A program made the translations under genes and the position numbers. The notes beneath the pieces were generated by a model. The model was given only the letters and a program-made list of their open reading frames with translations, made no database searches and was not told where the DNA came from. Below, in pieces: positions 42,749 through 61,281 of a DNA stretch of 64,000 nucleotides (its first letter is position 1; each line of letters begins with the position of its first letter). The stretch is from positions 69,256 through 133,255 of the forward strand of contig JABHBL010000056.1 of assembly GCA_018673925.1 (NCBI GenBank), read 5' to 3'. This DNA is from Fidelibacterota bacterium. GTDB taxonomy: Bacteria > Fidelibacterota > UBA8477 > JABMPR01.

Positions 42749-44731
42749 TTATCTCACAAGGAGTAACTTTGTGATAGCTGTCCGTGTTTCCGTCTCAAGA
42801 CGACACAGATAGACACCCGCTTCCACTGGATTACCATCCATATCCCTACCATTCCAGGTGACCTGATATCGACCACCGTCTTGAGAGGAATTCAATAATT
42901 GAATCACTTCTCGGCCCTGGAGATTAAGAATGCTCATCTTGACTGCTGTCTGCTCATCAAGAGTATAGGGTATGGTTGTTGTTGGATTGAACGGATTGGG
43001 GTAATTTTGTTCTAATTCAAACGCCAGAGGTATGGCCATTTCATCCTCTGCTAGCCCTACGACGTAATCAGTTGATTTTAAAATCCAACCATCTGGATCC
43101 ATGACCAGACCTGTTACTATTTCTCCTTCAGGAATATCAAAATTAAAGGTCATGAACTGTTGATCAATTCTTAAAACAGTATCAATCACTGAACCTGTTG
43201 TAGTGATGCGAAAATCAACGGGAAGATCAAAAGACAAACCTGATTGGATGGTCTGCACCAGGAGATCCGTACCCGTTTGGGCACGGTAAGCGCGATAATG
43301 TGGAAAACCCTGACCATAAATCCACTGTTGGAAAAAATTTGTGAAATCGAGACCACTTACTTCTTCACAAACCATTTGAAATTCTTCAGTAGTAGCGGTC
43401 CCATATTTGAATTGTGGGTCATCGGAGTAGGTTTGGAGTATCTCAAAGAAAGTTTCATCACCAACGATATGTCTCAGCATATGCAAGACCCAGGCTGGCT
43501 TATTGTACGATAGATTTGAACCAAATATGGATTCTGTTTCTGGATCCTCTACATAAATAGTACCACCACCATAATACTCAAGTTCAGCCATTTTACTTCG
43601 ATATCCACTGGGACCGTAGTGCTCTTCCCACCACAACGCTTCAGCATAACGTGCAAAACCTTCATTGAGCCAGATGTGATGATAACTAAAGCAAGTGATC
43701 ATGTCTCCATACCACATGTGAGCCAATTCATGAGCCACCCGTCTCTCAGTGGGGTTACCCATGGATGTTAAAGTTTGATGTTCCAGACCCCAATTCTCAC
43801 CCCATTCAGCATGACCGTACTTCTCATCCATAAAGGGATAAGGTCCAAACTTGTCTGCAAACAGAGTGAGCATATCTGGAAGCATTCCATAATTGGTTGT
43901 CATATAAGATGGATTGGGATTATCTGGATGGCTATAAGTGTAGAATTCAATGGGCAGCGTATCGTTATTTGCATCTACATAGATGTCACCCCAGACATAG
44001 AAATCATATATGGAGAGTGATACCAGATAGGTGGCGATGGGGTAGCCAACATGGTAATGCCAGGTTCTGGTACCATCAGCATTATCAATATTGGATATGA
44101 GACGTCCATTTGAGGCGACTGTCATATTATCGGCAATGGTTACCACAATATCCAAGGAATCTGCCTTATCCCTGGGATAGTCTATGCAGGGCCACCATTT
44201 TCTAGCGTCGTAAGGTTGTGATTTGGTCCAGATGGAACGTTGACCTGATTCATAATCCCAGTTAAAACCATAGTTGTCTTGATTGCTCGCCGGACCAGCC
44301 TGCGAAAAAATCTCCAAGGTCATGAGTTGACCCAGACTGGGCGTAGTTTCAAGAGGTATTGACAGCATTTCATTGAGATGTGTAAAAGCGACAGTATCAC
44401 CCTCTAGAATAACCGTATTAACTGATATATTTCCAGTTCCAAGGTTGTTCGTGGAATAGTCAAGTTCAATGGTTTCCACCGTGGTATCCAACACAACAAA
44501 CCTTACCAAAAATTCTTTTACCATTGATGTTGTAGCAATATCCATATCAAAGTTCAAACCATAATAGCGAATATCGATTTTCTCTTGTTCAGAGGTAGGC
44601 TGCATGTCACGAAGAAACTGACTCTCATGGGCGTGGCCACAGGGTTTCTCTTCATCAATAAATGCATTTCCGCCTATGGAAATGATCATTCCTAGTAGGA
44701 ATAATAACTGTCTGGTCCAAATCTGCTTCAT
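42749..44731 (-). CDS. M1-family zinc aminopeptidase with T9SS-type C-terminal sorting domain
   Basis: HELAHMWYGD...WLNEGFA (HExxH-x18-E). Signal peptide. Last ~92 aa (42752-43027) carry NYPNPFNP...GVYLCRL...KLLLVR, typical of T9SS/FlgD-Ig-like CTDs. Confidence 0.85.
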   Translation of the reverse strand: MKQIWTRQLLFLLGMIISIGGNAFIDEEKPCGHAHESQFLRDMQPTSEQEKIDIRYYGLNFDMDIATTSMVKEFLVRFVVLDTTVETIELDYSTNNLGTGNISVNTVILEGDTVAFTHLNEMLSIPLETTPSLGQLMTLEIFSQAGPASNQDNYGFNWDYESGQRSIWTKSQPYDARKWWPCIDYPRDKADSLDIVVTIADNMTVASNGRLISNIDNADGTRTWHYHVGYPIATYLVSLSIYDFYVWGDIYVDANNDTLPIEFYTYSHPDNPNPSYMTTNYGMLPDMLTLFADKFGPYPFMDEKYGHAEWGENWGLEHQTLTSMGNPTERRVAHELAHMWYGDMITCFSYHHIWLNEGFARYAEALWWEEHYGPSGYRSKMAELEYYGGGTIYVEDPETESIFGSNLSYNKPAWVLHMLRHIVGDETFFEILQTYSDDPQFKYGTATTEEFQMVCEEVSGLDFTNFFQQWIYGQGFPHYRAYRAQTGTDLLVQTIQSGLSFDLPVDFRITTTGSVIDTVLRIDQQFMTFNFDIPEGEIVTGLVMDPDGWILKSTDYVVGLAEDEMAIPLAFELEQNYPNPFNPTTTIPYTLDEQTAVKMSILNLQGREVIQLLNSSQDGGRYQVTWNGRDMDGNPVEAGVYLCRLETETRTAITKLLLVR

Positions 44732-46343: not shown

Positions 46344-46373
46344 ATTCTCACAAATTGAACATTGAGGTTTTTC

Positions 46374-47360
46374 ATGAGTGTTGTTGATAAATTCATTGCC
46401 AGAGCAAAGGATAACCCAGCTCGCATTGTCTATCCCGAAGCCACTGATCCACGGATACTACAAGCTGTTGTACAGGTGAAAGAACAAGGTATAGCTACCC
46501 CCATCCTGATTGGTAGCCCTGGTCAAGTTCAAGAAATAGCTCGGGATCATAATTGCTCAATTAGTGGGATCGAAATTATCGATAGTAAGACAGATGCTCG
46601 ACTTGATGACTATGCTCAAGCCTATGCAACCAATCGCGATCTAAGAGAGGCCATTGCCAAAAAACTGGTTCGCAAGCCACTGTCTTTTGGTGGGATGATG
46701 GTTAACCAGGGCGCTGCTGATGGCATGGTAGCAGGTGTGGCTACAGCAACCAGTATCGTTATTCAAACTGCGACACTTACTGTGGGGTTTCAAGAAGGAC
46801 TCTCGACTCCCAGCAGTTTCTTTATAATGATTATTCCAGAATTTCAAGAGAAGCGGGATAAGATTTTTCTCTTTGCTGACTCCGCAGTAAACATTCAACC
46901 CAGTGCTCAACAATTGGCTGAGATTGCCATCGCATCTGGGACAAATGCCAGAGCTCTATTGGGCATTGACCCAAAAATAGCCTTTCTATCATTTTCGACC
47001 AAAGGTTCTGCCGGGCATGCAGATGCAGACAAAGTCATTGAGGCACTCGCCATAGCACGGAATATTAATCCTGAATTTGATATGGATGGTGAACTCCAGC
47101 TAGATGCCTCCATCATCCCCAGTGTTGCATCTAAAAAGGTGCAGGAAAGCTCCGTTGCAGGAGAAGCCAACGTATTGGTATTTCCTGATCTTGATGCGGG
47201 AAATATTGGCTACAAACTGGTCCAGTATATGGCCAACGCCAAGGCCATCGGGCCTATTCTCCAGGGTTTTGCAAAACCGGTGAATGATATGAGCCGCGGC
47301 GCCAGTGTAGACGATTTGATCGCCGTGTCCGCCATTACCTCAGTCCAGGCCAAAGGATAG
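46374..47360 (+). CDS. pta: Phosphate acetyltransferase (short form)
   Basis: PTA_PTB family blocks (IVYPEATDPRIL, ADSAVNIQP, LVFPDLDAGNIGYK). ATG at 46374 is preferred over the track's TTG at 46362. Confidence 0.9.
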   Translation: MSVVDKFIARAKDNPARIVYPEATDPRILQAVVQVKEQGIATPILIGSPGQVQEIARDHNCSISGIEIIDSKTDARLDDYAQAYATNRDLREAIAKKLVRKPLSFGGMMVNQGAADGMVAGVATATSIVIQTATLTVGFQEGLSTPSSFFIMIIPEFQEKRDKIFLFADSAVNIQPSAQQLAEIAIASGTNARALLGIDPKIAFLSFSTKGSAGHADADKVIEALAIARNINPEFDMDGELQLDASIIPSVASKKVQESSVAGEANVLVFPDLDAGNIGYKLVQYMANAKAIGPILQGFAKPVNDMSRGASVDDLIAVSAITSVQAKG

Positions 47361-47366
47361 AGCAAC

Positions 47367-48566
47367 ATGAAAATCCTGGTCTTTAATTGTGGTAGTTCAT
47401 CGATAAAATTCAAACTATTTCATATGCCACTGGAGGATGTGCTAGCGGAAGGTCTTTTGGAAAGGGTCGGTTCAGAAGACGCATATGCTTCACTAAAAAC
47501 ACCCCGGGGGAAAATGGAGAAAAACCGGGCGATTCCTGACTACCCCTCAGGATTTGAAGTCATCAAAAAAATGCTTCTCGATCCTGACAATGGTGCTATT
47601 AGTACTCTATCTGAAGTTAATGCCTGTGGCCATCGTGTGGTTCATGGAGGCGAAAGCTTTGGTGGATCCATGCCTATAGACGATGAGCTGGAGGAAGGTA
47701 TTGAGGCTGTCTTTGAGCTCGCCCCCCTCCATAATCCTCCCAATTTGACTGGAATACAACAAGCCAGACTCATGTTTGGTAAACTTCCTCAGGTGGCCTG
47801 TTTTGATACGGCATTTCACCAGAGTATTCCTGAAGTGGCCTACCGCTACGCCCTGCCTGAGAAATTGTACACTGAACACCAGATTCGACGCTATGGTTTC
47901 CATGGTATGTCACATCAATATGTAGCTCGACAGGCTGCGCAGATGATGGGAATGCATAAATATTCTGTAAATCTGATTACCTGCCATCTTGGAAATGGAT
48001 CTTCTGTGGCAGCCATCAGAGATGGCCACTCAGTTGATACCAGCATGGGACTCACTCCGTTGGAAGGTCTTGTCATGGGAACACGTAGCGGTGATCTGGA
48101 CCCGGGCATCCTTTTCTATCTAAACCGGAAAGGTTACGACACGGACAGCCTGGATACACTGCTTAACAAACAGTCTGGTCTTCTTGGAATCTCAGGAAGC
48201 TCCAATGATGTTCGTGATCTCGAATTGAAAGCTGATGACGGCGATGATAGAGCTGAGTTAGCTCTTAACATCTTTGCCTATCGCATTAAAAAATACATCG
48301 GGGCATATATGGCTGTGCTAAACCGGGTTGATGCCATTGTTTTTACTGGAGGCATTGGTGAAAATGGTGCTGCTATGCGTCATCGGATTCTGTCTGATAT
48401 GGATCAACAGGGCATCGTCATTGATAACATGAGAAACGAAATTCATGCTGGAGTGGCAGGTGAAATTCAAGGAGCAACATCCAGAATTAAGGTCATGATC
48501 ATCCCAACTAATGAGGAGTTGGCCATTGCTCGTGATACTTTCAAACTAACCACAATGAAACACTGA
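47367..48566 (+). CDS. ackA: Acetate kinase
   Basis: MKILVFNCGSSSIKF, HRVVHGG, FDTAFHQ, FHGMSH, FTGGIGEN. Confidence 0.93.
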   Translation: MKILVFNCGSSSIKFKLFHMPLEDVLAEGLLERVGSEDAYASLKTPRGKMEKNRAIPDYPSGFEVIKKMLLDPDNGAISTLSEVNACGHRVVHGGESFGGSMPIDDELEEGIEAVFELAPLHNPPNLTGIQQARLMFGKLPQVACFDTAFHQSIPEVAYRYALPEKLYTEHQIRRYGFHGMSHQYVARQAAQMMGMHKYSVNLITCHLGNGSSVAAIRDGHSVDTSMGLTPLEGLVMGTRSGDLDPGILFYLNRKGYDTDSLDTLLNKQSGLLGISGSSNDVRDLELKADDGDDRAELALNIFAYRIKKYIGAYMAVLNRVDAIVFTGGIGENGAAMRHRILSDMDQQGIVIDNMRNEIHAGVAGEIQGATSRIKVMIIPTNEELAIARDTFKLTTMKH

Positions 48567-48584
48567 TAAATCAGGAGAGAAAAG

Positions 48585-48824
48585 ATGTCAACCATAGATC
48601 GAATTAAGAATGTAGCTGCTGAATTGTTAAAGGTTGAGGCCTCACGTGTCCAGGAATCTTCCCGATTCGTAGAGGATCTTGGTGCTGACTCCATGCAATC
48701 TATCGAACTGGTTGCTGCCTTTGAAGAAGAGTTCGATATCGAGATGGATGAAGATGCTGCGTTGGGCGTAAAAACAGTTGGGGATGCAGTTGGTTTTATT
48801 GACCGTGTTATCGCCGAAGGTTGA
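48585..48824 (+). CDS. Acyl carrier protein paralogue
   Basis: 79 aa. DLGADSMQSIELV matches the ACP phosphopantetheine-Ser motif (DS[LM]). Sits between ackA and a GntR gene rather than among fab genes. Confidence 0.8.
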   Translation: MSTIDRIKNVAAELLKVEASRVQESSRFVEDLGADSMQSIELVAAFEEEFDIEMDEDAALGVKTVGDAVGFIDRVIAEG

Positions 48825-48830
48825 TCTCTT

Positions 48831-49598
48831 ATGAGTAACGAGAGACTTCTATATAATACCCATCTGGACAAGAGCAGTTACATCCCGCTCTATATTCAGG
48901 TCAGGGATATTCTAAAAGAACTCATCAATTCAGGGAAACTTCAACCTGGCGACCAGATTCCCAGCGAGAATGAGTTATCCTCGGAATACAATATCAGCCG
49001 TATGACTGTACGACAGGCCAGTCAGGAGCTTATCCGCGAAGGATACATTATTATCAGGCGTGGCGAAGGAACCTTTGTCAACGCGGCCTCCCATACCCAA
49101 ATGCTTCTCAAGCTGGAAGGATTTTCTTCTGAGATGGCCAAACTTGGCTACCGGAATCACTCCCGAGTCTTGAACATTGAAATGGTTGAGGCATTCGACT
49201 CCTTCGGTATGGCTTACACAGGTTTGGGGAAGGAACCTGGTGAAGCCCTGGTCAGGATTCAGAGAATCCGATATGTAGAAGAAACACCCTTCGCCATCGA
49301 AACTTCCTTCCTGCCCCTGGATGTGGGTCAGGGTCTCCTGAATCCACGTATGGCTGACGACGCCTCCATCTATAATTACATTGAAAAAGATCTACACATC
49401 AGGCTTTCCCGAGCTGACCATGTTATCCAACCTGGCCTCGCCGATCAAGAGCAGGCGGAACTCCTGGAAATTGCCAAAGGAAGCCCCGTTTTAAATCTCC
49501 ATGGGACCACGTTTTCTATGAATAATCAACCTGTGGAATATCTCGAGGGTATTTACAGGGGTGACAAATATGAATTGAAAGTTGTGATCACTAAATAG
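48831..49598 (+). CDS. GntR/HutC-family transcriptional regulator (wHTH + UTRA), NagR-like
   Basis: PSENELSSEYNISRMTVRQA wHTH. C-terminal UTRA-type effector domain. Confidence 0.85.
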   Translation: MSNERLLYNTHLDKSSYIPLYIQVRDILKELINSGKLQPGDQIPSENELSSEYNISRMTVRQASQELIREGYIIIRRGEGTFVNAASHTQMLLKLEGFSSEMAKLGYRNHSRVLNIEMVEAFDSFGMAYTGLGKEPGEALVRIQRIRYVEETPFAIETSFLPLDVGQGLLNPRMADDASIYNYIEKDLHIRLSRADHVIQPGLADQEQAELLEIAKGSPVLNLHGTTFSMNNQPVEYLEGIYRGDKYELKVVITK

Positions 49599-49609
49599 GA
49601 AATCATAAT

Positions 49610-51583
49610 ATGAATTCTGAACAATATTTAGCCCTGACACCGGAAGCCATCAAGATTCTCAAAAGTAATGGCTGTTGGTCAAGGAGTTGGTCAAAAGTAA
49701 AAGTAACCAGGGGCTTTGACCCAACGCGGATCGCAGGAACCATTTTCAGAGGTCAGGTCCGCATTGGACGTCTTGAGGGTGAGTTTCTACCCAAAGATGG
49801 TATTCGACGATATGCTGGAATATTTGATGCCAATCTTCACAATGTCCATATTGGGGACAATTGCCATATTTCGAATATCAATGGCTGGCTTTCCAACCTG
49901 GTGATTGAAGACAATGTGTTGATAGAAAACGCAGGCTCAATTGTTTGCCAAGGTGAAACCAGTTTTGGAAATGGCCATTCAATTGAAGTTCTCAATGAGG
50001 CTGGCGGTAGGGAGTTAAAAATTACTGAGATGACCAGCGCTCAGACTGCTTATTTATCAACCATGTATCGACATGATACCGAGTTGATCAAGGCTTTGGA
50101 TGAGATAGCAGAGAAGTATGCCAGGAGTGTTCGTTCTGATAGAGCTACTATTGGTGAGGGAGCCAAATTATTTCACTGCCAGAATATTGTGAATGTAAAT
50201 ATTGGAAAAGGAGCCATTCTAAGGGGAATCCAGAACCTGAAAGAAGGAACTATTGCTTCATCCCCAGAGGCTTCCACATTTGTTGGTGATGGTGTCATCG
50301 CCAAGGATTTCATCATTCAGAAGGGAGCTTATGTATCGGATGGTGCCCTATTGGCATCAACCCTGATCGGTGAGGCTTCAAAAATTGGCAAACAATTCTC
50401 TGCAGAAAACTCGGTCTTGTTCTGCAACTCAGAAGGTTTCCATAGTGAGGTCTGCTCCATTTTTGCGGGACCCTATACTGTCACACATCATCGCTCAACA
50501 CTGCTCATCGCCGGCATGTTTTCCTTTTTCAATGCAGGTAGTGGTACCAACCAGTCCAATCACATGTACAAATTGGGACCATTACACCAGGGGATCATTG
50601 AACGTGGTGGTAAAACTGGGTCTTCCTCCTATCTGCTCTGGCCATCCCGAGTGGGTGCCTTTTCTGCCATTATGGGTAAGCATTACTCCAATTTTGACAG
50701 CTCCGACTTCCCCTTCTCCTATGTCAATGAGGACAGTGGTCAATCTACGCTGGTACCTGGTATGAACTTTTTTACTGTTGGCACCATGCGTGATGGATTG
50801 AAGTGGCCAACCCGTGATGGTCGCAAGAATACCGACAAGCTGGATCAACTCAACTTTGAGGTTTTATCCCCCTATACCGGTCAAAAAATGATGCAGGGAC
50901 AGTCCATTCTCTTGGATCTGTATGCTGGAGCGGAAAGGGGTCAGGAGTATGTGAGCCATAAGGGTATACTCATCAAGCGTCTGCTTTTAAAAACCTGTAG
51001 CCGCTATTATAGAATGGCACTTGAGAAATATCTGGGTGACGCTCTCATCGCACGACTCACCGCAAGTCCAGTTACAGATATTAATGAGCTGGTGAGTCAA
51101 TCTGATAGCGCTGATGATGGTGATAGTCCTTGGGTTGATGTCTCAGGTCTATTGTGCTCACAATCCCGGATCGAAGACTTATTAAACAGGATAAAAACTG
51201 GTGAGGTAATTGACCTGCATACACTTCAGGTCGAACTCCAGAAGATCCACAAGAGTTATACCCAGGATGAGTGGTCATGGGTTGTAAAAGCCATGCCTCA
51301 AGTTTGTGGATTTGAAAGTATCAACACAGAAAACCTGTTAACCGTACTGGAAAAATGGAAGGTATCCACCACGAAGCTGCTCAATATGGTGGAAATGGAT
51401 GCTTCTAAAGAATTCGAAGGTAATGTGCGAACCGGTTTTGGGATAGATGGGTACCAGGATGATGATTTTGATGAAGTTCGTGGAAAATTTGAGTCCAACT
51501 CATTTAAAAAGCAATTAGATGATATGAGACAAGCGGTTGAAAGCAATTATGACCATGCGCTCGCCATCTTGAACAATTTATAA
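49610..51583 (+). CDS. Large hexapeptide-repeat (left-handed beta-helix-like) protein, DUF4954-like; function unknown
   Basis: 657 aa. N-terminal half rich in [LIV]-G-x-x-x-x type turns (NVHIGDNCHISNINGWLSNLVIEDNVLIENAGSIV). The family name is from recollection and is unverified. Confidence 0.6.
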   Translation: MNSEQYLALTPEAIKILKSNGCWSRSWSKVKVTRGFDPTRIAGTIFRGQVRIGRLEGEFLPKDGIRRYAGIFDANLHNVHIGDNCHISNINGWLSNLVIEDNVLIENAGSIVCQGETSFGNGHSIEVLNEAGGRELKITEMTSAQTAYLSTMYRHDTELIKALDEIAEKYARSVRSDRATIGEGAKLFHCQNIVNVNIGKGAILRGIQNLKEGTIASSPEASTFVGDGVIAKDFIIQKGAYVSDGALLASTLIGEASKIGKQFSAENSVLFCNSEGFHSEVCSIFAGPYTVTHHRSTLLIAGMFSFFNAGSGTNQSNHMYKLGPLHQGIIERGGKTGSSSYLLWPSRVGAFSAIMGKHYSNFDSSDFPFSYVNEDSGQSTLVPGMNFFTVGTMRDGLKWPTRDGRKNTDKLDQLNFEVLSPYTGQKMMQGQSILLDLYAGAERGQEYVSHKGILIKRLLLKTCSRYYRMALEKYLGDALIARLTASPVTDINELVSQSDSADDGDSPWVDVSGLLCSQSRIEDLLNRIKTGEVIDLHTLQVELQKIHKSYTQDEWSWVVKAMPQVCGFESINTENLLTVLEKWKVSTTKLLNMVEMDASKEFEGNVRTGFGIDGYQDDDFDEVRGKFESNSFKKQLDDMRQAVESNYDHALAILNNL

Positions 51584-51595
51584 TACGGAGAAAAA

Positions 51596-52402
51596 ATGAG
51601 ACTTATTATTCAAACCAACTATGATCGATTAAGCAAGTGGACCGCACATTATATTGCGAAAAGCATTAATGATTTTGCTCCCACAAAGGACAATCCTTAT
51701 GTCTTAGGACTGCCTACCGGATCTTCACCAGTTGGGACCTACAAGGAGATAGTAAATCTGGTAAAGGAAGGACGCGTCTCGTTTGAAAATGTCATCACTT
51801 TCAATATGGATGAATATGTCAAGATTCGAGAAGGTCATCCAGAAAGCTATCATTCATTTATGCGACAAAATCTTTTTAACCACATCGGTATTCCTGAAGA
51901 AAACATCAACATTCTAGATGGGAATGCAAAGGACCTGGTTGCAGAGTGTGATGCCTTCGAAGCCAAGATAAAATCAGTCGGTGGTATCCGTCTTTTTCTG
52001 GGTGGAATTGGTCCTGATGGACATATCGCCTTTAATGAACCCGGGTCCTCACTTCACTCTAGGACACGTGTAAAAACATTAACTTATGACACTCGAATTG
52101 CTAATTCCCGATTTTTTGGGAATGATATTGAGTCCGTTCCAAAGCTGGCTTTGACTGTTGGTGTCGGTACGGTTACCGATTCTAAGGAGGTCGTTTTGAT
52201 TGTCAATGGTCACTCTAAAGCCAGGGCACTTTATAAGATGATTGAAGAGGGTGTCAACCATATGTGGACTTCCTCTGCGCTACAGCTTCATCCAAAGTCC
52301 ATGGTGGTTTGTGACGAGGATGCCACTTACGAACTCAAACATGGAACCTATCGATACTTCCGGGATATTGAGAAGGAAAATCTTCAGCCCTATGCCATAT
52401 AG
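51596..52402 (+). CDS. nagB: Glucosamine-6-phosphate deaminase
   Basis: [36 protein letters not shown]. Confidence 0.92.
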
Positions 52403-52433
52403 ATATACGTTTAACGTACACATACCTCCACAA

Positions 52434-52461
52434 AAGAAGCCCCTGAAATCAGGGGCTTCTT
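52434..52461. terminator. Bidirectional terminator hairpin
   Basis: AAGAAGCCCCTGA-aa-TCAGGGGCTTCTT, an 11-13-bp stem between convergent nagB and the selenoprotein gene. Confidence 0.75.
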
Positions 52462-52490
52462 GGTTGATGGATAGATCTTTGGAAAAAATG

Positions 52491-53357
52491 CTATTTCAGC
52501 AAAAGAATTTTCCTCGTATCGCGACCGCCATCATGAAACAGTGTAGCCAGATACACACCGCTAGGCAGATCTGCACCTGAATCATCCCTTGTGTTCCAGG
52601 TTAACTGGTGTGAGCCTGCCGAAAGATCAACATTCAGCAGCTGTCGGACTGCCCTACCCTGATTATCATAAATTGAAAGTCTCACAAAGCCTGAATGAGG
52701 GAGCTCAAATTGGATTTGAGCTTCTGCATTAAAAGGGTTGGGATAGACTGAGAGCAAGGTGTGTGTCTCTGGTGTCTCAATCTCGTCACCCACTTCCGAA
52801 ACGATGAGCAGTTCGTCCAGTAAATTTGTAATGACTGATTCATTATATCCAATCGAGTTATACTGAACGACTCCATTCATATCAATGATGGTATTACGTG
52901 GGATAGCTCCAGTACCAAAGTCACTCCAGATATTTGACCCGCGATCATCAGCGATTGGATATGAAGCCCCTAGACTAGCCCAGGCCTGACAATTCAACGA
53001 GTTAAAATCACTACCAAGGGAAACAACCAGGAGACCTTCATCGGCTCGTGATTGGTGAAACTCCTCCAAGTGCGGAACCTCCGCACGGCAATTGCCTCAC
53101 CAGGATGCAAAAAAATTAAGCCAGACAACTCGCGTGTCCATCCCCTGATCAGGTTCTAGTAAACTTCCCAGTGTCACATCCCCAGCGTCATTAGCGCAAA
53201 AGCTCACAACCCTGTCTCGGGTGGCCTGACTAATTGTTTGCCCCACACTGTATTGGCCATAGGCCTCTGTTCCCAACAAGTATATACTTAAGACCAGGGC
53301 TATGGAAGTAAGCCTGGTTACTTTTTTGAAATTCATATAAGCTCCATTAATAATCAT
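52491..53357 (-). CDS. Predicted selenocysteine-containing thioredoxin-fold (TlpA/ResA/redoxin-like) protein with signal peptide and T9SS C-terminal domain; in-frame UGA at 53097-53099
   Basis: Track ORFs 53097-53357 and 52491-53069 are in one frame, separated by a single TGA. Read-through gives VVWLNFFASW-U-GNC-RAEVPHLEEF (the WCxxC motif) and a cis-Pro block GAIPRNTIID. A SECIS-like hairpin starts 10 nt after the UGA. The start may be ATG 53357 or ATG 53336 (MNFKKVTRL...). Confidence 0.8.
53070..53099 (-). promoter_or_regulatory. UGA recoding site plus bacterial SECIS-like stem-loop
   Basis: mRNA: UGA-GGCAAUUGCC-GUGCGGA-GGU-UCCGCAC. A perfect 7-bp stem with a GGU apical loop (17 nt, 53070-53086) begins 10 nt after the UGA. 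Confidence 0.7.
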
Positions 53358-53527
53358 TAATCCTCGAATCCAATTTAGGATGGACTGTATAAATTAGTGT
53401 CAGAGGAACGACACTTATTCTAAAGGTACATATAAAAATATTTAAACTAATTTTCAAGTATCTCCTCTTAATTCGATAATATTTTAAGCTATATTGCCCA
53501 GCACTTAAAATTTTTCAGGAGTTAGAG

Positions 53528-53998
53528 ATGATTGATGATCGTGATATCCAGATATTGGAATTACTACAGGAAAACGGACGCGCTACTGCCAGCGAAATAG
53601 CCAAAGTTGTACAACTCTCCATACCGGCAGTTGGGGAGAGAATGAAAAAACTCACAGAGAATGGATTGATTAAAGGCTATTCAACCGTAGTAGATCACAA
53701 AAAAGCAGGTTTAGATCTTACCGCCTTTGTTTTCATCGTCAGCGAGCATTCAGATCATTATGATAAGTTTATTGAGCAAGCTTCTGAATCGAGCTCAGTT
53801 CTGGAATGCCACTCCATCATCGGTGGAGGCTCTCATATTCTGAAGGTCCGAGCTAGAAACTCACAAGCCCTGGAAGACCTGCTGTATGAAATTCAAAATT
53901 GGCCTGGGGTGAATAGGACCCAATCGAACCTGGTATTATCCACCTACAAGGAAACCACATCGATCGATTTGCATGCCTTGATGCCCGCAAACAGTTAG
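53528..53998 (+). CDS. Lrp/AsnC-family transcriptional regulator
   Basis: AsnC-type HTH (DDRDIQILELLQENGRATASEIAKVVQLSIPAVGERMKKL) plus a C-terminal RAM/AsnC_trans_reg domain. Confidence 0.9.
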   Translation: MIDDRDIQILELLQENGRATASEIAKVVQLSIPAVGERMKKLTENGLIKGYSTVVDHKKAGLDLTAFVFIVSEHSDHYDKFIEQASESSSVLECHSIIGGGSHILKVRARNSQALEDLLYEIQNWPGVNRTQSNLVLSTYKETTSIDLHALMPANS

Positions 53999-54075
53999 CC
54001 AGGATAATTTTTTCGCTAATAATTCATAAATACCTTATATTTTTAAAGTATGTTTAATTATCTCTTAAATTATTA

Positions 54076-54104
54076 TTGACATGTAACAAGATCGCTTGTT
54101 AATT
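54076..54104 (+). promoter_or_regulatory. Candidate promoter with overlapping perfect palindrome upstream of the glutamine synthetase gene
   Basis: TTGACA (54076-54081). TAACAAG-ATCG-CTTGTTA perfect 7-bp inverted repeat (54084-54101) fills the spacer. Weak -10 TTAATT (54099-54104). Confidence 0.3.
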
Positions 54105-54162
54105 GTATGTCATGAAAATTAAGCAAATAGTCATTAAGCAATTCGACTAAGGAGAACACGCC

Positions 54163-55173
54163 GTGGCAAAAATTAAAGCTGAATATATCTGGATTGATGG
54201 TCACCAACCTACATCCAAGCTCCGTTCAAAGACAAAAATTATTGATGGGCCTGTCACTTCACTGGATCAAATACCTGAATGGGGTTTTGATGGTTCCAGT
54301 ACCATGCAGGCTGTAGGACACGACAGTGATCGCTCTCTTCATCCCGTTTCATTTTATCCAGATCCTATTCGAGGTGGGGAAAACATCCTTGTCATGAATG
54401 CTGTTTGTTATCCTGATGGCAAATCCCACGAATCAAACAAGAGGGATCATCTTGTTGAAGTGACAAAGCAGTTTGAATCAGAAGAATCCTGGTTTGGTAT
54501 CGAGCAGGAATACACCTTTTTCCAGGGTCGCGCCCCTTTGGGTTGGCCTGATGGTGGATATCCAGCTCCTCAGGGTCCTTTCTACTGCGGTGTAGGTGCT
54601 GATGAGGTCTTTGGTCGCGATATCGTAGAAGATCACATGGAGGCCTGTTTACGGGCTGGTATTGGCATCTCCGGCGTGAATGCTGAAGTCATGCCTGGTC
54701 AGTGGGAATTTCAGATTGGACCTCTAGGACCTCTGGAAAGTGGTGATCAATTATGGATGGCACGCTGGTTATTGTACAGAATTGCTGAAGAATATGGTGT
54801 CAATGCCAGTATTCACCCCAAACCTGTTAAGGGTGATTGGAATGGAGCGGGAGCTCATACCAATTTCAGCACCAAAGCCATGCGTGAAGCAGGTGGTTAT
54901 GATGTGGTTGAAGCTGCCTGCAAAAAACTGGGTGAGAAACATGAGGAACATATCGCTGTTTATGGTGCTCATAATGAAGAACGCCTCACGGGTCTTCACG
55001 AGACCTGTTCGATTCATGAATTCCGCTATGGTGTCAGCGACCGCGGGGCTTCAGTTCGCATTCCTCTTCAAACTGTGAAAGATGGTAAAGGTTATCTGGA
55101 GGATAGGCGTCCTTCAGCCAATATGGATCCGTATGAAGTTTGTGCCATTTTGTTGGAGACAATCTGCTCCTAA
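54163..55173 (+). CDS. glnII: Type II (eukaryote-like) glutamine synthetase
   Basis: GTG start after AAGGAG. N-terminus KAEYIWIDG..PT.KLRSKTKI is typical of GlnII. 336 aa. GxNGAGAHTNFS motif. Confidence 0.88.
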   Translation: MAKIKAEYIWIDGHQPTSKLRSKTKIIDGPVTSLDQIPEWGFDGSSTMQAVGHDSDRSLHPVSFYPDPIRGGENILVMNAVCYPDGKSHESNKRDHLVEVTKQFESEESWFGIEQEYTFFQGRAPLGWPDGGYPAPQGPFYCGVGADEVFGRDIVEDHMEACLRAGIGISGVNAEVMPGQWEFQIGPLGPLESGDQLWMARWLLYRIAEEYGVNASIHPKPVKGDWNGAGAHTNFSTKAMREAGGYDVVEAACKKLGEKHEEHIAVYGAHNEERLTGLHETCSIHEFRYGVSDRGASVRIPLQTVKDGKGYLEDRRPSANMDPYEVCAILLETICS

Positions 55174-55200
55174 AGATATCTCCCCTTCATGAGGATTTAC

Positions 55201-55236
55201 AAAGCCACCCCCGTCAATAAGGGGTGGCTTTTTTTA
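55201..55236. terminator. Rho-independent terminator
   Basis: AAAGCCACCCC-N9-GGGGTGGCTTT followed by TTTTT. Lies between convergent glnII and the ABC gene. Confidence 0.85.
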
Positions 55237-55272
55237 CTGGTTTCGCTAAACCACCTGCCTGAGAATTTTCAA

Positions 55273-56988
55273 CTAATCTTGGGCAAACAGTGAGCGGTAC
55301 TCGGGGTGGAGGCGCAACAAGTCGGCATGCTGACCTTCATGATAAATCTGTCCATCTTTGATCCAGATTACCCTATCCATTTCTGAGGCTGTTGCTTCCC
55401 GGTGGGTGGCAACCAGGAAGAGCGCCTCTGAGTAAGCTGTATTAATATTCTGCCACAGAATTTTTTCGGTGTTGAGATCAAGGGCTGAGGTGACATCATC
55501 AAAGATATAAATTGGCGTATTCCCATAAAAGGCACGAGCTAGAGCCACTCGAGCCCTTTGCCCACCACTTAGCCCAACACCACCCTGCTCAAGGATCTTG
55601 TCCAGATCGAGCTCTCCCCCAATAACAGCTGACTCAGTAATTGACTCCAAACTTTGAGAGGATTCACGACCCATACTGATATTGTCAGTTACCGTACCAC
55701 TGAATAATTCGATATCCTGGGGTACATAGCCGATAATTTGAGCCCTCGAAGCATCGCTGAGGTCATCAATACGTAGATCATCAACTTCTACACTGCCACC
55801 TGAGGGTACAAACCAGCCAGAGATCAACTTCAACAGGACTGTTTTCCCGGAACCAACCTCTCCCACTACCCCAATTTTCTGGCCTGGATTGGCGGAGAAG
55901 TCAAGAGCTTTGATAATGTCAACCTCTTCGCCAGGAAATCGAAAATGCAGGTTTTTGATTCTGAGCTGATTGATGGGGAGGTCAACCACGTTGTCATGCA
56001 CTGGCTTGTTTTCAAATTTTTCAATCTCTTCCAGACGATCTACAGAAGATTCAGCCATCTTCAGGGACACGAAAAACCAGGAAATGGTCCAAATGGGCTC
56101 TGTAATACCTGTCATATATGCAATAAAGGCATAAAAAGTACCCAGGGTGATTTCTCCATGAATGACATAGTACCCACCAAGAAATAGGATGACAACCAGT
56201 CCGACCTGATTAATCAAACTTCCCAGGCTTTCTAGGAAGGAGCGTATATATACCACGCGTTCCTCTGCGTTTTTGCGGTCTATCATATTGGATTGGAAAA
56301 GACGTTCCTGGGCTTGCTCCATAACAAAACCTATGACGATCCTAATACCGGAGAAAGCGCTTTCCAGAATATTATTCGTTTGAGAGATGGTCTGTTGACG
56401 CTTTTTATATGCTTCATGCTGCAGATGCTCCGTCTTACTCATGGCCCAGACAATGAGAGGTAGTGGTGAAACAGCCAGGAGGGTTAATTTCCAATGTAAG
56501 GTCATCATCACCCCAATGGAAAACAGAAGGGTGAATCCGGCTTCTACAGGACGCATAATACCTGAATTCGCAAACCAGCCTAATTTGATATCCCCGTCGA
56601 TATCATCGGAGAAGCGCGTGATCAGATCCCCTGATCGATATTCATTAAAAAAGGCTGGATCTATTCGCAGCAGATTTTCAAAATGAAACAGCTTGATGTC
56701 CATCCCCAAAACCAGATTCATGATATATCGCGACGAAGGCAATATCCAGCGGGTGAGAGTCCGGGCAAGTCCGACCAGCAAAATTATCCATACATAGAAC
56801 TGGACATCCCCTGTCTCGCTCCCTGCAGACAATGAGTCAATGACATACTTAAAAATAATGGGATAGGCTGTGCTTAGAGCAATACTCACAACCGTGATGA
56901 GCATAACCCAGCTAATACCTTTCCAGCGCTGCCTCCAGTAAGGAGCAAACCAGCCCAGGACGTGTTTGGTGGCGCCAAGCAAAGCCAT
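55273..56988 (-). CDS. ABC exporter half-transporter (TMD-NBD), degenerate-site partner
   Basis: Six TM helices. Walker A GEVGSGKT. Signature LSGGQ. Walker B IYIFDDVTSALD, with Asp in place of the catalytic Glu. Confidence 0.9.
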   Translation of the reverse strand: MALLGATKHVLGWFAPYWRQRWKGISWVMLITVVSIALSTAYPIIFKYVIDSLSAGSETGDVQFYVWIILLVGLARTLTRWILPSSRYIMNLVLGMDIKLFHFENLLRIDPAFFNEYRSGDLITRFSDDIDGDIKLGWFANSGIMRPVEAGFTLLFSIGVMMTLHWKLTLLAVSPLPLIVWAMSKTEHLQHEAYKKRQQTISQTNNILESAFSGIRIVIGFVMEQAQERLFQSNMIDRKNAEERVVYIRSFLESLGSLINQVGLVVILFLGGYYVIHGEITLGTFYAFIAYMTGITEPIWTISWFFVSLKMAESSVDRLEEIEKFENKPVHDNVVDLPINQLRIKNLHFRFPGEEVDIIKALDFSANPGQKIGVVGEVGSGKTVLLKLISGWFVPSGGSVEVDDLRIDDLSDASRAQIIGYVPQDIELFSGTVTDNISMGRESSQSLESITESAVIGGELDLDKILEQGGVGLSGGQRARVALARAFYGNTPIYIFDDVTSALDLNTEKILWQNINTAYSEALFLVATHREATASEMDRVIWIKDGQIYHEGQHADLLRLHPEYRSLFAQD

Positions 56989-58778
56989 TATAACATTTCC
57001 TTCTCTGGATCCACATGAGACAGCAGGTCGAAATAGGAGCCTTTTTGACGTATCAACTCATCATGATTTCCAGATTCAGTTATCTCTCCAGCTTTGACAA
57101 AAATGATTGATGTTGCTCGACGAATAGTACTCAGTCTGTGAGCTACGATAAAGGACGTACGACCTTCAGTGAGCTTTTTCATGGTGGCTTGAATACGTAG
57201 CTCCGTTCCTGGATCAACAGAGGAAGTTGCTTCATCCAGAACCAGGACCTGGGGTTTCACCGCCAGGGCTCTGGCAAAGGCAATCAGTTGTCTCTGACCA
57301 TATGAGAAGCCCTCTCCACTCTCCTTGAGAACCGTGGCATAACCATCTGATCTGTTGAGAATGCTGGTGTGTATGTCTGTGAGATTGGCAGCTTCCTCTA
57401 GATCTTGCTGGGTCACTTCAGAGCGGAAAGCCCTCAAGTTTTCGGCAATGGGGGCAGGAAAGAGGAAAAGGTCCTGAAGTACCAGACCAAAGCGTCGTCG
57501 ATAATCCGCCACATCAAATTCACGGATATCAATTCCATTCAACAGAATGCGACCTGTTTGGGGATCCCTGAAGCGACAGATCAAGTTGATAATGGTTGAT
57601 TTGCCACCACCGGTTGGACCCACAAAAGCAACTTGATCGCCACCCTTTATTTCAAAACTCATATTCTTGATAATCAAGTTATCATCAGAGTATCCAAAAC
57701 TGACATTCTCAAAAACAATGCTCTCGACTTCTTGGGGTAAATCAACTGGTTTTGACTGAGTCTCGATATAGGGTTTGTCTTCAAGAGTGGAAAAAATCCT
57801 ATCTGCAGCACCACCAGCTGACTGGAGTTGCGAAATCTGCTCAGTGAACATAAAAATGGGCCAGTAAATCTGGGCAATGTATTGAGCAAACAAGACCAAC
57901 GCACCAATGGTCAGGCTCCCATCATTGACCCATTTTACACCCAGCATAAGCACAATCACAGTGGCACCAACTTCCATAAATCCAAGTCCCTGGAAAATAC
58001 CGTAATTGATAAAATTCATCTTGATGCTAAATCGATTGAAATCTTCAGTCGATCTCCGGACCCGGCCAATAGCCCAATCGGTTCGATCAAAGACCTGGAG
58101 AATGCTGGCTGAACGTACAAACTCGCTGAGCACACCAATCATTTTTGAAAAATTTGCTCTATCCTTGCGAAAGAATGGTCGGAAATAGCGAAAGGAAAAC
58201 CAGGCGATAAAGATCACTAGTGGGAAAATGGCCAGTGTGATGAGCATAAACCGCATATCGACTGTGGCCAGGATGATGAAGGCTCCGATGATCATTCCAA
58301 ATGACATAAGCAGGCGCTGGGCCATAGTAGAGGTGACAGCGATAATTCGTTGTGGATCGGATTCTATCCTGCTCACCAATTGTCCCGTCGAGGTTGATTC
58401 AGCAAAGGGTAAGCCCAATTTCAGAGCATGGGAAAAAAGCGAAACCTTCAAATCATTTACGGCGAAGATGCCTGCCTTCTGGGCCATCCAATTGCTATAA
58501 AATCCCACAACAGCTGAAAGTACCATGGTGAGGAGGTAGAGTCCTGCTGAACAGGCGAGAGCAGTAAAATTTTTGCTGGGGATGTCTGAATCAATAATAT
58601 GTTTCAGAATAATGGGTTGAAATAAAACCAGGATGACACCCACAAAGGCCCAGACCAGGGCAAAAAAGAAAGTCCTGTTGTAGGGTCTTATAAAAGGATA
58701 AACGCCCCTGACCATCTCCTTAAAGGAGTAGGTTTTGGCATTGTCATCATCCAGGCTAAAGTCATCGTCCCACCACAT
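56988..58778 (-). CDS. ABC exporter half-transporter (TMD-NBD), consensus-site partner
   Basis: Walker A GPTGGGKST. Non-canonical signature FSYGQ. Walker B VLVLDEATSSVD. 1-nt overlap with the downstream partner gene. Confidence 0.9.
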   Translation of the reverse strand: MWWDDDFSLDDDNAKTYSFKEMVRGVYPFIRPYNRTFFFALVWAFVGVILVLFQPIILKHIIDSDIPSKNFTALACSAGLYLLTMVLSAVVGFYSNWMAQKAGIFAVNDLKVSLFSHALKLGLPFAESTSTGQLVSRIESDPQRIIAVTSTMAQRLLMSFGMIIGAFIILATVDMRFMLITLAIFPLVIFIAWFSFRYFRPFFRKDRANFSKMIGVLSEFVRSASILQVFDRTDWAIGRVRRSTEDFNRFSIKMNFINYGIFQGLGFMEVGATVIVLMLGVKWVNDGSLTIGALVLFAQYIAQIYWPIFMFTEQISQLQSAGGAADRIFSTLEDKPYIETQSKPVDLPQEVESIVFENVSFGYSDDNLIIKNMSFEIKGGDQVAFVGPTGGGKSTIINLICRFRDPQTGRILLNGIDIREFDVADYRRRFGLVLQDLFLFPAPIAENLRAFRSEVTQQDLEEAANLTDIHTSILNRSDGYATVLKESGEGFSYGQRQLIAFARALAVKPQVLVLDEATSSVDPGTELRIQATMKKLTEGRTSFIVAHRLSTIRRATSIIFVKAGEITESGNHDELIRQKGSYFDLLSHVDPEKEML

Positions 58779-58928: not shown

Positions 58929-61253
58929 TTAGTTCTTGTATGCTTCGAAACGAATGGTCTTACTCATCCCATCCTCATCCATGATGGTCAGATAATGCTC
59001 ACCCGCTGAAAGATCAACCGGCAGGGTGTGCAATGAATCTGTTTCTCCAATAATATCCTGATCAAGAAGCCAGAACAGATGAGCATCGCTCTTGGGGTGG
59101 ATGGCTTCAAGAACTATGGATTCATAGCTCCCGTCAAAATTTCGTGGGACAAAGACACGCACATTATGAATAGGGTAGATAATTCTCAAATCTTCTACAG
59201 ATCGAATCGCTTCACAGTCAGCCTTGTGTGCAGGTCGTACGATAAAGCTATGTCCAATATTGCGCAATACTTGTTGAACGGCCGGAGGTTCTATGTACAA
59301 TACTTGTTTCATCCGTTTTAAGCCAGACCAGCATTGTGAGCACAACTCCCTACCTGTTTTTTCATCAACAATGAAGGATTTATGATAGGGACACACACCG
59401 CTTTGGTGACTCCCCATGGGCACTTCAGTCATGACACGATCAGGGCAATCTGAATTTGGTGGGTATCCACTTTGCTTGCAGGTTTCAATAAACCGAAGAT
59501 CCATTTCCGGTTTTTCAAAGGGGGCTACACCTGAAGGATCTGATATGGCATTAATTACATCAAAAAGGATGGGACCGGCTGACTTGGCTCCTCCCAATTC
59601 AACATTCCCCGCACCATCAAAATTGCCCACCCACACGCCAACTGTGTACTCGGATGTCGTTCCAATTGCCCAGGCATCTTTTTGTCCATAACTAGTACCT
59701 GTCTTCCAACTGACGGGAGTTTGATAGCTGAAATTTTTCCAGTAATAATCACTTCCTGGTCGCTTCAGATTCTGTAATGTCATAAGCACCTGATAACAAG
59801 CACCACCACTGAAGGATCTTTCCCGAATAGATTCACGTTCTTTTTGCTGAATAAATAGATCAACCGGTTTTCCCAGGTTACCAAGATCAACATAGGCCTG
59901 GACCAGCTCGTACAATGAAGCTTCAGCCCCACCCAGGATCAAGGCCAGACCATATCCATCTGCACTTCGAAAAAGACCCCTTAAGCCCATATCCTTAAAT
60001 ATTTCATACATATCCGAGGTACCTATGGTATTCAATAATCTCACTGAAGGAATATTCAACGAGCGAATCAACGTCTCATCCAGGGTGACCATTCCTGAAA
60101 AAGTCTTGGAAGCATTTTGGGGGCTAAAGGTTCCAAAAAAGGTGGGGACATCTTGTATTTGTGATCGCATTGTGAAGGGTCCCCGATCCAGTGCTTTGGC
60201 AACCAGAAATGGCTTGAGCAAACTTCCTGTACTCCGTGATGCCTGAATACCATCGACCTGCCCAGAATAGGCATCATCAAAAAAGTTCTGTGAGCCAACA
60301 TATGCACGAATAGCACCGGTGGATGTCTCTGCCACCAGAATGGACAGATTATGAATCCCTCTCGTATTGAGATTGTGATGGTGAATACTTGAGATTGCAT
60401 CCACCATATTTTGCATAGACATATCCAGAGTCGTCGGCTGCATATTGCCAGAATTAAGCTTTAGTGCTTGCTCAGAAAAATGAGGTGCTTTAAATGGCAA
60501 CCTGATTTGAGTATCAGGTAAGGGTTCTGCCTGAGCTAACTCTAGAGTAGCTCTATCCATATGACCCTGGTCAAATAAACGCTGTAGCAGCCTATTGCGT
60601 TTTTTTAGAAGCAGGGGTCGTTGCCTACTCAGATTTAGCATGGATGGGGCATTGGGAAGTATGGCAAAGAGACAGGCTTCAGACCATGTCAATTCGCTGG
60701 AAGGTTTTTCGAAATAGCAATACGCTGCTGTACTTAAGCCTACAATATTCCCACCCATGGGAACCTGGGAGGCGTATAGCTGAAGCACTTCAGCCTTGCT
60801 ATAATGAAGGGTAACCTTGAGCGCGCTAAAGAGCTCTTGAAATTTGTGGAAGTAAGTTCTGGACTTCGGGGCGGACAAACGAGCCACCTGCATGGGTATT
60901 GTGCTACCACCACTTACTCGACGTCCAGATGTCAAGTTTGAGAGAAAAGCCCTGCCCATGGCTATTGGATCGATACCGGGATGCCAGAAATATCGTTTGT
61001 CTTCCCAGGTCACCAGAGCTTGTATGTACTTCTCAGGAAGCGCCTTGTCTATATATGGCGCTCGATATTGGTCATCCTCCGCCAGAGTAAATCGCAATAA
61101 CTCATCATTTTTATCAAAGATGAGGGTGGAATAATTATCTGGAAATAATTCACCGGGGGGGATTAAAAACCAGATCAGAAGAAGTATGCCCGTCAGGCTG
61201 ACCAGACGGGCAATACTAAATGGTTTAACACCCAAAAGCCGTAATACGACCAT
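58929..61253 (-). CDS. pbpC: Penicillin-binding protein 1C
   Basis: GT51 motifs (WEDKRYFWHPGIDP, GGSTIPMQVAR). Transpeptidase SxxK (STGSLLKP). C-terminal PBP1C-specific beta-domain. Directly downstream of the alpha-2-macroglobulin gene. Confidence 0.9.
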   Translation of the reverse strand: MVVLRLLGVKPFSIARLVSLTGILLLIWFLIPPGELFPDNYSTLIFDKNDELLRFTLAEDDQYRAPYIDKALPEKYIQALVTWEDKRYFWHPGIDPIAMGRAFLSNLTSGRRVSGGSTIPMQVARLSAPKSRTYFHKFQELFSALKVTLHYSKAEVLQLYASQVPMGGNIVGLSTAAYCYFEKPSSELTWSEACLFAILPNAPSMLNLSRQRPLLLKKRNRLLQRLFDQGHMDRATLELAQAEPLPDTQIRLPFKAPHFSEQALKLNSGNMQPTTLDMSMQNMVDAISSIHHHNLNTRGIHNLSILVAETSTGAIRAYVGSQNFFDDAYSGQVDGIQASRSTGSLLKPFLVAKALDRGPFTMRSQIQDVPTFFGTFSPQNASKTFSGMVTLDETLIRSLNIPSVRLLNTIGTSDMYEIFKDMGLRGLFRSADGYGLALILGGAEASLYELVQAYVDLGNLGKPVDLFIQQKERESIRERSFSGGACYQVLMTLQNLKRPGSDYYWKNFSYQTPVSWKTGTSYGQKDAWAIGTTSEYTVGVWVGNFDGAGNVELGGAKSAGPILFDVINAISDPSGVAPFEKPEMDLRFIETCKQSGYPPNSDCPDRVMTEVPMGSHQSGVCPYHKSFIVDEKTGRELCSQCWSGLKRMKQVLYIEPPAVQQVLRNIGHSFIVRPAHKADCEAIRSVEDLRIIYPIHNVRVFVPRNFDGSYESIVLEAIHPKSDAHLFWLLDQDIIGETDSLHTLPVDLSAGEHYLTIMDEDGMSKTIRFEAYKN

Positions 61254-61281
61254 CGGTTTATCAGTTATCAGTTTGAAAATC

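Follow-up and report, generated by a model that had tools for sequence, protein, structure and literature searches.

Two adjacent open reading frames (ORFs) of 86 and 192 amino acids lie on the minus strand at positions 52491 to 53357 of a 64,000-nucleotide (nt) stretch of DNA from a Fidelibacterota bacterium (assembly GCA_018673925.1, contig JABHBL010000056.1, positions 69,256 to 133,255; the whole stretch is termed the window herein). They raise the question of whether the locus holds two small genes, the remains of a gene, or one gene whose internal UGA codon is decoded as selenocysteine (Sec). A previous reading of the letters (the sequence-only reading) had proposed the last of these, namely, a thioredoxin-fold selenoprotein with a UGA at the redox Cys, a hairpin resembling a selenocysteine insertion sequence (SECIS), and a C-terminal sorting domain of the type IX secretion system (T9SS). 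We consider it highly probable that the locus is a single Sec-decoded gene for a 281-residue extracytoplasmic TlpA/ResA-like thiol:disulfide oxidoreductase.

The two ORFs form one reading frame with a single internal UGA

The 86-amino-acid ORF (53097..53357) and the 192-amino-acid ORF (52491..53069) share one minus-strand frame in the ORF list, and the gap between them consists of the TGA at 53097-53099 and nine sense codons, just as the sequence-only reading had described it. When the minus strand was read directly from 53336 to 52491, this TGA was the sole internal stop, standing between ...RVVWLNFFASW and GNCRAEVPHLEEFHQ... in the translation. The complete coding sequence (52491..53336, minus strand) thus comprises 281 codons in a single frame, including one Sec UGA, and ends with a TAG stop at 52491-52493. 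The true start is the ATG at 53336 (MNFKK...), whose Met is conserved among relatives; this Met and the full length of the gene are kept in 11 species-level genomes. The upstream ATG at 53357, from which the ORF track begins, was rejected as the start, since stop codons precede the conserved Met in the relatives. A GGAG motif resembling a Shine-Dalgarno sequence, read from the sequence, is found 5 nt before the ATG at 53336-53334 (53342..53345, minus strand) and may serve as one.

Standard gene callers had been predicted to split such a gene, and this is what the databases contain. In the Joint Genome Institute (JGI) annotation of the Saanich Inlet assemblies, the window's gene is called as an 86-amino-acid and a 192-amino-acid gene, and among 5.8 billion protein clusters, a search picked out 26 close relatives (54 to 80% identity), every one of them a C-terminal fragment of 154 to 197 amino acids that covers only the C-terminal 55 to 70% of the query. 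All 26 carry the name "T9SS type A sorting domain-containing protein." The starts that gene callers assigned to these fragments differ and are not conserved. Uniformly C-terminal entries of this sort are what gene callers produce when they halt at a shared stop codon.

The UGA stands at the attacking cysteine of a thioredoxin fold

Pfam was searched with the read-through protein in which U was replaced by C. Residues 64 to 166 (52839..53147, minus strand) form a TlpA/ResA-like thioredoxin-fold domain that matches Redoxin (PF08534, E value of 3.1e-16, 59.9 bits against a cutoff of 26.6), and this match straddles the TGA at residue 80, in keeping with the earlier claim that neither fragment is a complete fold alone. 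Of the other families named for checking, AhpC-TSA (40.8 bits against 26) and Thioredoxin_8 (33.5 against 27) also scored above their cutoffs, and Thioredoxin was matched as well. The best match among solved structures was ResA (PDB 4nmu, 1.5e-13). The cis-Pro loop block G-A-I-P-R-N (Pro146; 52893..52910, minus strand) aligns with GVGPLPTS of ResA, and its P-R-N is invariant in the family.

In alignments with the solved structures of ResA, DipZ, and DsbE/CcmG, the UGA falls on the first, attacking Cys of W-C-x-x-C, with W-U-G-N-C set against W-C-K-P-C of ResA. The resolving Cys83 of the UxxC motif (53088..53090, minus strand; TGC here) is invariant in all relatives, where it is encoded by TGC or TGT. 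An exhaustive HMMER search with the window's C-terminal fragment as the query yielded four full-length Cys homologues of the same architecture (P0183, P0205, P0207, and P0226; 269 to 280 amino acids), which align over all 281 residues with 31 to 37% identity (E values of 1e-44 to 1e-56) and have the active sites WCISC, WCTTC, WCTNC, and WCNPC. Like the window's protein, they have a putative signal peptide, an N-terminal Cys in C-A-N-G/D, a redoxin domain, and a YPNPFN...LLK tail; unlike it, they carry an active-site Cys without an in-frame stop and have been annotated in full. Seventeen more distant relatives that lack the tail (L029-L045) read WCPPC or WCGPC. The proposal that the UGA replaces the redox Cys is therefore borne out by the structures and by both groups of homologues.

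The UGA is conserved, and both sides of it are under coding selection

The related DNA comprised 11 species-representative genomes, most of them labelled Candidatus Neomarinimicrobiota, and 17 metagenome contigs of the same type; the conservation set contained 29 sequences, 23 of them distinct, with 49 to 81% amino acid identity. The Sec codon (residue 80, the nucleophilic position of W-U-G-N-C; 53097..53099, minus strand) is TGA, exactly at W-TGA-[GS]-x-C, in all 29. Protein conservation is strong on either side of it, and the nine codons that separate the two ORFs are among the best conserved. Nucleotide differences upstream of the TGA numbered 6883 at the third codon position compared with 2865 and 2636 at the first and second positions, and downstream they numbered 10817 compared with 4463 and 3290. 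This third-position excess of approximately 2.5-fold in both halves shows that both are translated in this frame. The window's gene was also found, identical and with its TGA, on independent Saanich Inlet assemblies, which excludes an assembly error and a pseudogene.

We give almost no weight to the view of the locus as a pseudogene, an assembly error, or a pair of independent small genes of 86 and 192 amino acids. Public annotation does present it as two genes or one fragment, but the two halves are never genuinely separate genes among the homologues examined, the downstream fragment has no conserved start, and the same TGA recurs across independent assemblies and samples. This view was rejected on the conserved TGA, the purifying selection in one frame on both sides of it, and the thioredoxin fold that it would cut, with the Redoxin match spanning the TGA.

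A truly decayed copy looks quite different. Contig JABMPR010000112.1 (L011, positions 9400-9700) carries, between lrp and the intact selenoprotein gene, a fragment of a tandem paralogue that was found with a covariance model built from the close clade only (R1; 37.9 bits). In this fragment (...QLVWLTFFGSW-R-SSCW..., ending in a stop), AGA stands in place of the Sec codon, the hairpin has degenerated, and there is a frameshift; the fragment shows how this sequence looks without selection.

TGA also recurs in a divergent Tara Oceans lineage (L048, 944-1807, and L049, 787-1650; 28% identity, 30% GC), which encodes a distant Sec-type relative, protein P0249. The database entry for P0249 was translated with TGA as Trp (SW-W-PNC ... 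LLK-W-YRTL) and reads past the real TGA stop. The entry looked like a Trp exception; the underlying DNA has TGA at both positions, and we rejected that interpretation in favor of a second, very divergent Sec form. As an observation in its own right, selenoproteins on low-GC contigs can be masked as seeming Trp variants by genetic code 4 calls, P0249 being an example.

This database entry is what speaks for a variant genetic code of the organism, with UGA read as sense (Trp or Gly). Against such a code stand the 17 of the window's 55 ORFs that end in TGA, with normal spacing, and the gene in L048, which itself terminates with TGA after ...LLK. A scan of the window for further frames interrupted by TGA turned up only off-frame shadows of real genes, so that an internal in-frame TGA is confined to the gene studied here. 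In this genome, TGA acts as an ordinary stop, and we rejected the sense-codon reading, whose probability we regard as negligible, on this stop codon usage.

A hairpin downstream of the UGA is under RNA-level selection

The transcript contains the hairpin GUGCGGA-GGU-UCCGCAC (53070..53086, minus strand; in DNA, GTGCGGA-GGT-TCCGCAC, 53086..53070), with a 7-bp stem and a 3-nt loop that starts with G. It begins 10 nt after the TGA, and the distance from the UGA to the loop is 17 nt; position and sequence agree with the 17-nt hairpin of the sequence-only reading. The hairpin is the apical part of a 50-nt bacterial SECIS-type element (53053..53102, minus strand), in which a lower stem UGGUGA:UCACCA that includes the UGA is followed by a CC:GG pair step and then by the apical hairpin. 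The element folds with -17 to -23.5 kcal/mol and has an RNAalifold consensus energy of -19.55 kcal/mol. A bacterial SECIS model in a 2026 review (PMC13188914) gives an apical loop of 3 to 9 nt that has a G within its first two positions, an upper stem of 4 to 16 bp, a UGA-to-loop distance of 16 to 37 nt, and a minimum free energy (MFE) of ≤-7.5 kcal/mol, and the window's hairpin lies within all of these bounds (GGU loop of 3 nt, 7-bp stem, 17-nt spacing, -9.9 kcal/mol). Among the relatives, the apical hairpin alone folds with -7.9 to -9.9 kcal/mol, and its loop is GGU, or GAU in three sequence types.

The single-sequence fold of the window's hairpin is statistically unremarkable (z = -1.33); its significance comes from comparative data. 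In the 23 distinct sequences, 99.1% of pair cells hold standard pairs, compared with 33 to 53% when the 3' partners are slid by 1 to 3 columns. One pair shows a compensatory change from C-G to U-A, in L006/L016 and in the most divergent clade, L025/L026; three other pairs have changed in a wobble-neutral manner, and L008 has a G-U wobble. Codons +4 to +9 (R-A-E-V-P-H), which make up the hairpin, form the stretch of lowest synonymous entropy in the gene, with 0.07 bits, whereas the 193 informative codons average 1.14. The control was drawn from the tail-less Cys group: in these 17 Cys-type genes, which encode nearly the same peptide (C-R-A-E-L-P), the hairpin is absent and the sites vary freely, with 3.2 of 7 pairs formed and -1.9 kcal/mol, compared with 6.96 of 7 and -9.6 kcal/mol in the Sec-type genes. 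Model R1 also finds an element in L048/L049 (19.5 bits, E value of ∼0.01), with the different sequence AAUCGG-AGGCU-CCGGUU and the 10-nt spacing kept. The hairpin is under RNA-level selection that is specific to the Sec forms, and the claim of a SECIS-like hairpin stands on this selection and on its geometry.

Compared with the SECIS of Escherichia coli fdhF and the bSECISearch consensus, the element likewise has its hairpin within the coding region directly 3' of the UGA, the UGA within the lower helix, the loop 16 to 37 nt from the UGA, and an MFE of ≤-7.5 kcal/mol. It differs from the E. coli SECIS in having no sequence similarity to it and no bulged U in the upper stem, a feature that is important in E. 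coli.

Indirect indications of selenium use in the genome and in related lineages

Two SAR406 single-cell genomes were classed as Sec utilizing in an earlier survey, which defined the trait by SelD/SelA/SelB (Peng et al. 2016, Table S2). The window itself contains, on the plus strand, a 21-kb purine catabolism cluster (15658-37196) of the type with selenium-dependent molybdenum hydroxylases. Its genes encode an adenine deaminase, an XdhA/PucD-like protein, SsnA, YgeY (5e-207), YgeW, two pyridoxal phosphate enzymes, XdhC, XdhB, YgfK (9e-284), an 8-oxoguanine deaminase, and a second FAD/FeS/Mo set, so that two XdhABC-like sets are present. The cluster implies the use of selenophosphate, a second selenium trait in the same genome.

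Two small proteins of the GxxExxY family (TIGR04256) are also encoded within this cluster (17380-17775 and 31848-32219, plus strand). Elsewhere in the window, a fused MsrB/MsrA methionine sulfoxide reductase (4595-5536, plus strand; 4.7e-133) has no in-frame TGA, and the model of the VPGUxxT thioredoxin-like selenoprotein matches its MsrA part weakly and only in part.

The protein belongs to a known selenoprotein family

A study of Global Ocean Sampling (GOS) data described a "Prx-like 3" selenoprotein family of 68 pfam08534-like sequences with a UxxC motif (Zhang and Gladyshev 2008, PMC2398784), and the 2026 review lists a "Redoxin family protein, PF08534, UxxC" (PMC13188914). In blastp comparisons, the GOS Prx-like 3 sequences from the supplement of the 2008 paper match the window's protein with 34 to 40% identity (E values of 1e-21 to 1e-30). 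Shared features are the fold, the Sec at the same position of W-U-x-x-C, the marine origin, a putative N-terminal signal peptide and then a Y-x-V-G-D/Q start, an extra Cys pair (C-x-N-G/D and S/N-C-x-x-W-A), and the YPIxDD, IP[HR]N, and SGYNE blocks. Judged by sequence, the protein is a member of this family and of a kind already known. The extra cysteines are Cys47 (F-C-A-N-D; 53196..53198, minus strand), which is conserved in the Sec forms, the Cys forms, and GOS Prx-like 3, and Cys116 (L-N-C-Q-A-W; 52989..52991, minus strand), which is ≥90% conserved in alignment A1 and has its counterpart in S-C-x-x-W-A of GOS Prx-like 3 and the Cys forms; this conservation suggests a structural Cys47-Cys116 disulfide.

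At their C termini, the GOS Prx-like 3 members shown have TSP3/dockerin-like modules, a basic tail, or no addition, whereas the window's protein has a T9SS type A tail; they are unassigned reads, whereas the gene studied here has been located in Marinimicrobia genomes, in conserved synteny; and, unlike in them, its SECIS has a nearly invariant sequence of its own. The tail as such is not new among selenoproteins, since other thioredoxin-fold selenoproteins in the GOS supplement already bear one of the YPNPFN type. Several other exported or outer membrane bacterial selenoproteins have been catalogued (PMC13188914). The checkable parts of the sequence-only reading all held; it overstated novelty in calling such an exported selenoprotein unusual, the family having been known since 2008.

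The Cys enzymes TlpA, ResA, and CcmG (DsbE) resemble the protein in their thioredoxin fold, W-C-x-x-C motif, and cis-Pro loop and in being exported, as it is predicted to be. They differ from it in that it has Sec for the attacking Cys, an extra N-terminal segment with a conserved Cys, and a C-terminal sorting domain. Because it scores far below the curated cutoffs for ResA (51 bits against 170, NF002854) and DsbE (46.2 against 123.15, TIGR00385), it is related to these enzymes without being their orthologue, and neither a cytochrome c maturation gene nor a ccdA/dsbD gene adjoins it. The NCBIfam family NF041054 ("ResA-like WAxxUGC motif-containing protein") and the "UGC-containing TlpA" selenoproteins are likewise TlpA/ResA-like selenoproteins from environmental bacteria, with the motif U-G-C (UxC) instead of U-G-N-C (UxxC); membership in NF041054 was ruled out by the score (26.4 bits against a cutoff of 300) and the motif.

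Literature searches found no paper that ties selenoproteins to T9SS or Por_Secre_tail, or Marinimicrobia to T9SS. What this case adds to the known family is an assignment to Marinimicrobia genomes with conserved synteny, the identification of the tail as a sorting domain for T9SS, good support for the SECIS, and a systematic misannotation.

Predicted signals for export

Residues 1 to 27 (MNFKKVTRLTSIALVLSIYLLGTEAYG / QYSVG; 53256..53336, minus strand) have the pattern of a signal peptide, which is found in all relatives: a basic n-region, a hydrophobic core, an A-x-G/A-x-A site, and then the conserved Q-Y-x-V-G. At the other end, residues 197 to 281 (YPNPFN...ILLLK; 52494..52748, minus strand) form a T9SS type A C-terminal sorting domain, which confirms the YPNPFN-type domain seen earlier: both the NCBIfam model TIGR04183 (Por_Secre_tail; 8.5e-12, 44.9 bits against a cutoff of 23) and Pfam PF18962 (Por_Secre_tail; 31.6 bits against 27) matched above their cutoffs. 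The protein ends with ...KILLLK, like other T9SS cargo. The C-terminal region also matches FlgD_ig in Pfam, a generic Ig-like fold.

The selenoprotein is 49 to 81% identical among relatives, and its syntenic neighbors (Lrp, GlnII, NagB, AckA, Pta, and ABC transporters; 46362-58778) are mostly 83 to 97% identical. This faster evolution fits an exposed protein. By domain homology alone, a cell surface or secreted location is plausible.

The same type A tail (TIGR04183, 5e-10) is found on an M1 aminopeptidase-like protein encoded at 42749-44731 (minus strand), and the genome therefore uses it on ordinary secreted hydrolases.

Proposed mechanism and alternatives

We infer the following course of events. 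The UGA at 53097-53099 would be read as Sec when the mRNA downstream of it folds into the SECIS, with the UGA held in the lower stem, and SelB carrying Sec-tRNA(Sec) binds this element. If selenium or the SelB complex is limiting, the ribosome would stop there and release a 79-residue fragment. The complete protein would be exported by the Sec protein translocon, fold in the periplasm, and probably pass to the cell surface or the medium, a route proposed because of the putative signal peptide, the probable structural disulfide, and the type A T9SS domain. The U80/C83 pair would then exchange selenenylsulfide and disulfide bonds with substrates.

Several observations weigh against this reading. 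Neither the window nor 444 kb of related DNA yielded selA, selB, selD, or tRNA-Sec, a weak negative, as this DNA represents one syntenic neighborhood: ARAGORN found no tRNA in the window and 23 loci, tblastn with E. coli SelA/SelB/SelD gave no match in the 444 kb, and the NCBIfam/Pfam annotation of all 55 window ORFs showed no selA/B/D or yqeB/C. In the survey mentioned above, three other, incomplete SAR406 single-cell genomes were classed as "orphan SelD" (Peng et al. 2016). As to the hairpin, covariation is thin, with one compensatory pair, found in two sequence types; the lineage sampled is fairly narrow, its neighboring genes being 83 to 97% identical; and the E-x-P codons in the hairpin are conserved at the protein level in the Cys forms too, so that nucleotide conservation is partly protein driven. 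No relevant Rfam match was obtained in a gathering-threshold scan of the whole window or an E-value scan of 52900-53250, the latter giving a chance snoRNA (E value of 6.5). To our knowledge, Rfam has no general bacterial SECIS model, and the null scan is thus uninformative and no rejection of the element. As to export, the NCBIfam/Pfam annotation revealed no T9SS machinery gene among the window's 55 ORFs, and a reductase at the surface has no obvious source of electrons.

The lack of Sec machinery in the DNA examined and the orphan SelD of some SAR406 genomes are what would be expected if the UGA were read through without Sec, by a near-cognate Trp-tRNA or Cys-tRNA with stimulation by the hairpin, to give a Trp or Cys variant or a low-level product; downstream hairpins can stimulate read-through in other systems. 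Such read-through is nevertheless very improbable in our view. The UGA stands exactly at the catalytic Cys of UxxC/CxxC, a typical Sec site, the hairpin fits the geometry of SelB-type bacterial SECIS elements, and TGC or TGT, each one mutation away, occurs in 0 of the 23 distinct sequences. Moreover, the GOS analysis scored the same family as a selenoprotein, and other SAR406 genomes have the Sec trait.

The final location of a genuine selenoprotein is a separate matter. The protein might stay in the periplasm or at the inner face of the outer membrane and receive reductant from a CcdA/DsbD-type system, its C-terminal domain being no working T9SS signal. TlpA, ResA, and CcmG are periplasmic reductases, and these are its relatives; a periplasmic site would also accord with the FlgD_ig match of the C-terminal region, with the missing T9SS components in the window, and with the question of electrons at the surface. 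We hold this to be possible although unlikely, given that the score for the type A sorting domain is well above the curated cutoff, that the window encodes another hydrolase with such a domain, which is typical of secreted cargo, that the GOS relatives carry TSP3/dockerin-like modules of an extracellular type at the same position, and that the protein, being below the ResA and DsbE cutoffs, is not an orthologue of those periplasmic systems. The fullest form of the export proposal, in which T9SS delivers the protein to the outer surface or the seawater to act as a selenium redox catalyst on external substrates, is put forward as a speculation that we find rather doubtful.

Neighboring features of the locus

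Between the convergent selenoprotein and nagB genes, a GC-rich, terminator-like hairpin (AAGAAGCCCCTGA-TT-TCAGGGGCTTCTT; 52434..52461) was read from the sequence and is at best a candidate. A consensus scan of the locus for promoters and terminators gave counts no higher than those for shuffled sequences, and it did not list this hairpin because of the short T-run. A 657-amino-acid DUF4954/DUF6819 protein is encoded between gntR and nagB (49610-51583, plus strand) and is syntenic in nearly all related loci. An alpha-2-macroglobulin-like protein, cut by the end of the window, adjoins a PBP1C-type transglycosylase/transpeptidase (58929-63879, minus strand), which we take to be a known periplasmic defense pair. 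Two metagenome-assembled genomes titled "uncultured Lentisphaeria bacterium" (L005, CAZDVD010000005.1, and L009, CAZVSF010000028.1) have the same syntenic locus, with neighboring proteins 79 to 95% identical to those of the window, and the label is probably a taxonomic mislabel of the bins.

Implications for annotation and for the biology of the family

The finding leaves the known principles of Sec decoding unchanged. Its practical consequence concerns annotation: every database entry for this protein, in 26 clusters and hundreds of contigs, is truncated and named for the sorting domain alone, and because no NCBIfam selenoprotein model covers the protein, automated pipelines will go on overlooking the predicted signal peptide, the first strand, and the active site. 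A model specific to the family, with the Sec position marked, would mend the annotation for a widespread ocean lineage.

For the organisms, the gene ties Sec decoding to Marinimicrobia of oxygen minimum zones, a phylum to which earlier surveys had assigned both Sec-utilizing and "orphan SelD" genomes. It also shows an exported redoxin family alternating both between Sec and Cys and between one surface-anchoring module and another. Should T9SS export prove real, the protein would offer a tractable example of a bacterial selenoenzyme outside the cell and be the first selenoenzyme secreted by T9SS. Candidate external substrates would then be disulfide-rich dissolved proteins, ahead of secreted peptidases, and polysulfide or metal(loid) species in oxygen-minimum waters. 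There would then also be a class of bacterial selenoproteins outside the cell, distinguished from one another solely by the anchoring module, a T9SS tail or a TSP3/dockerin-like one, and needing no known reductant.

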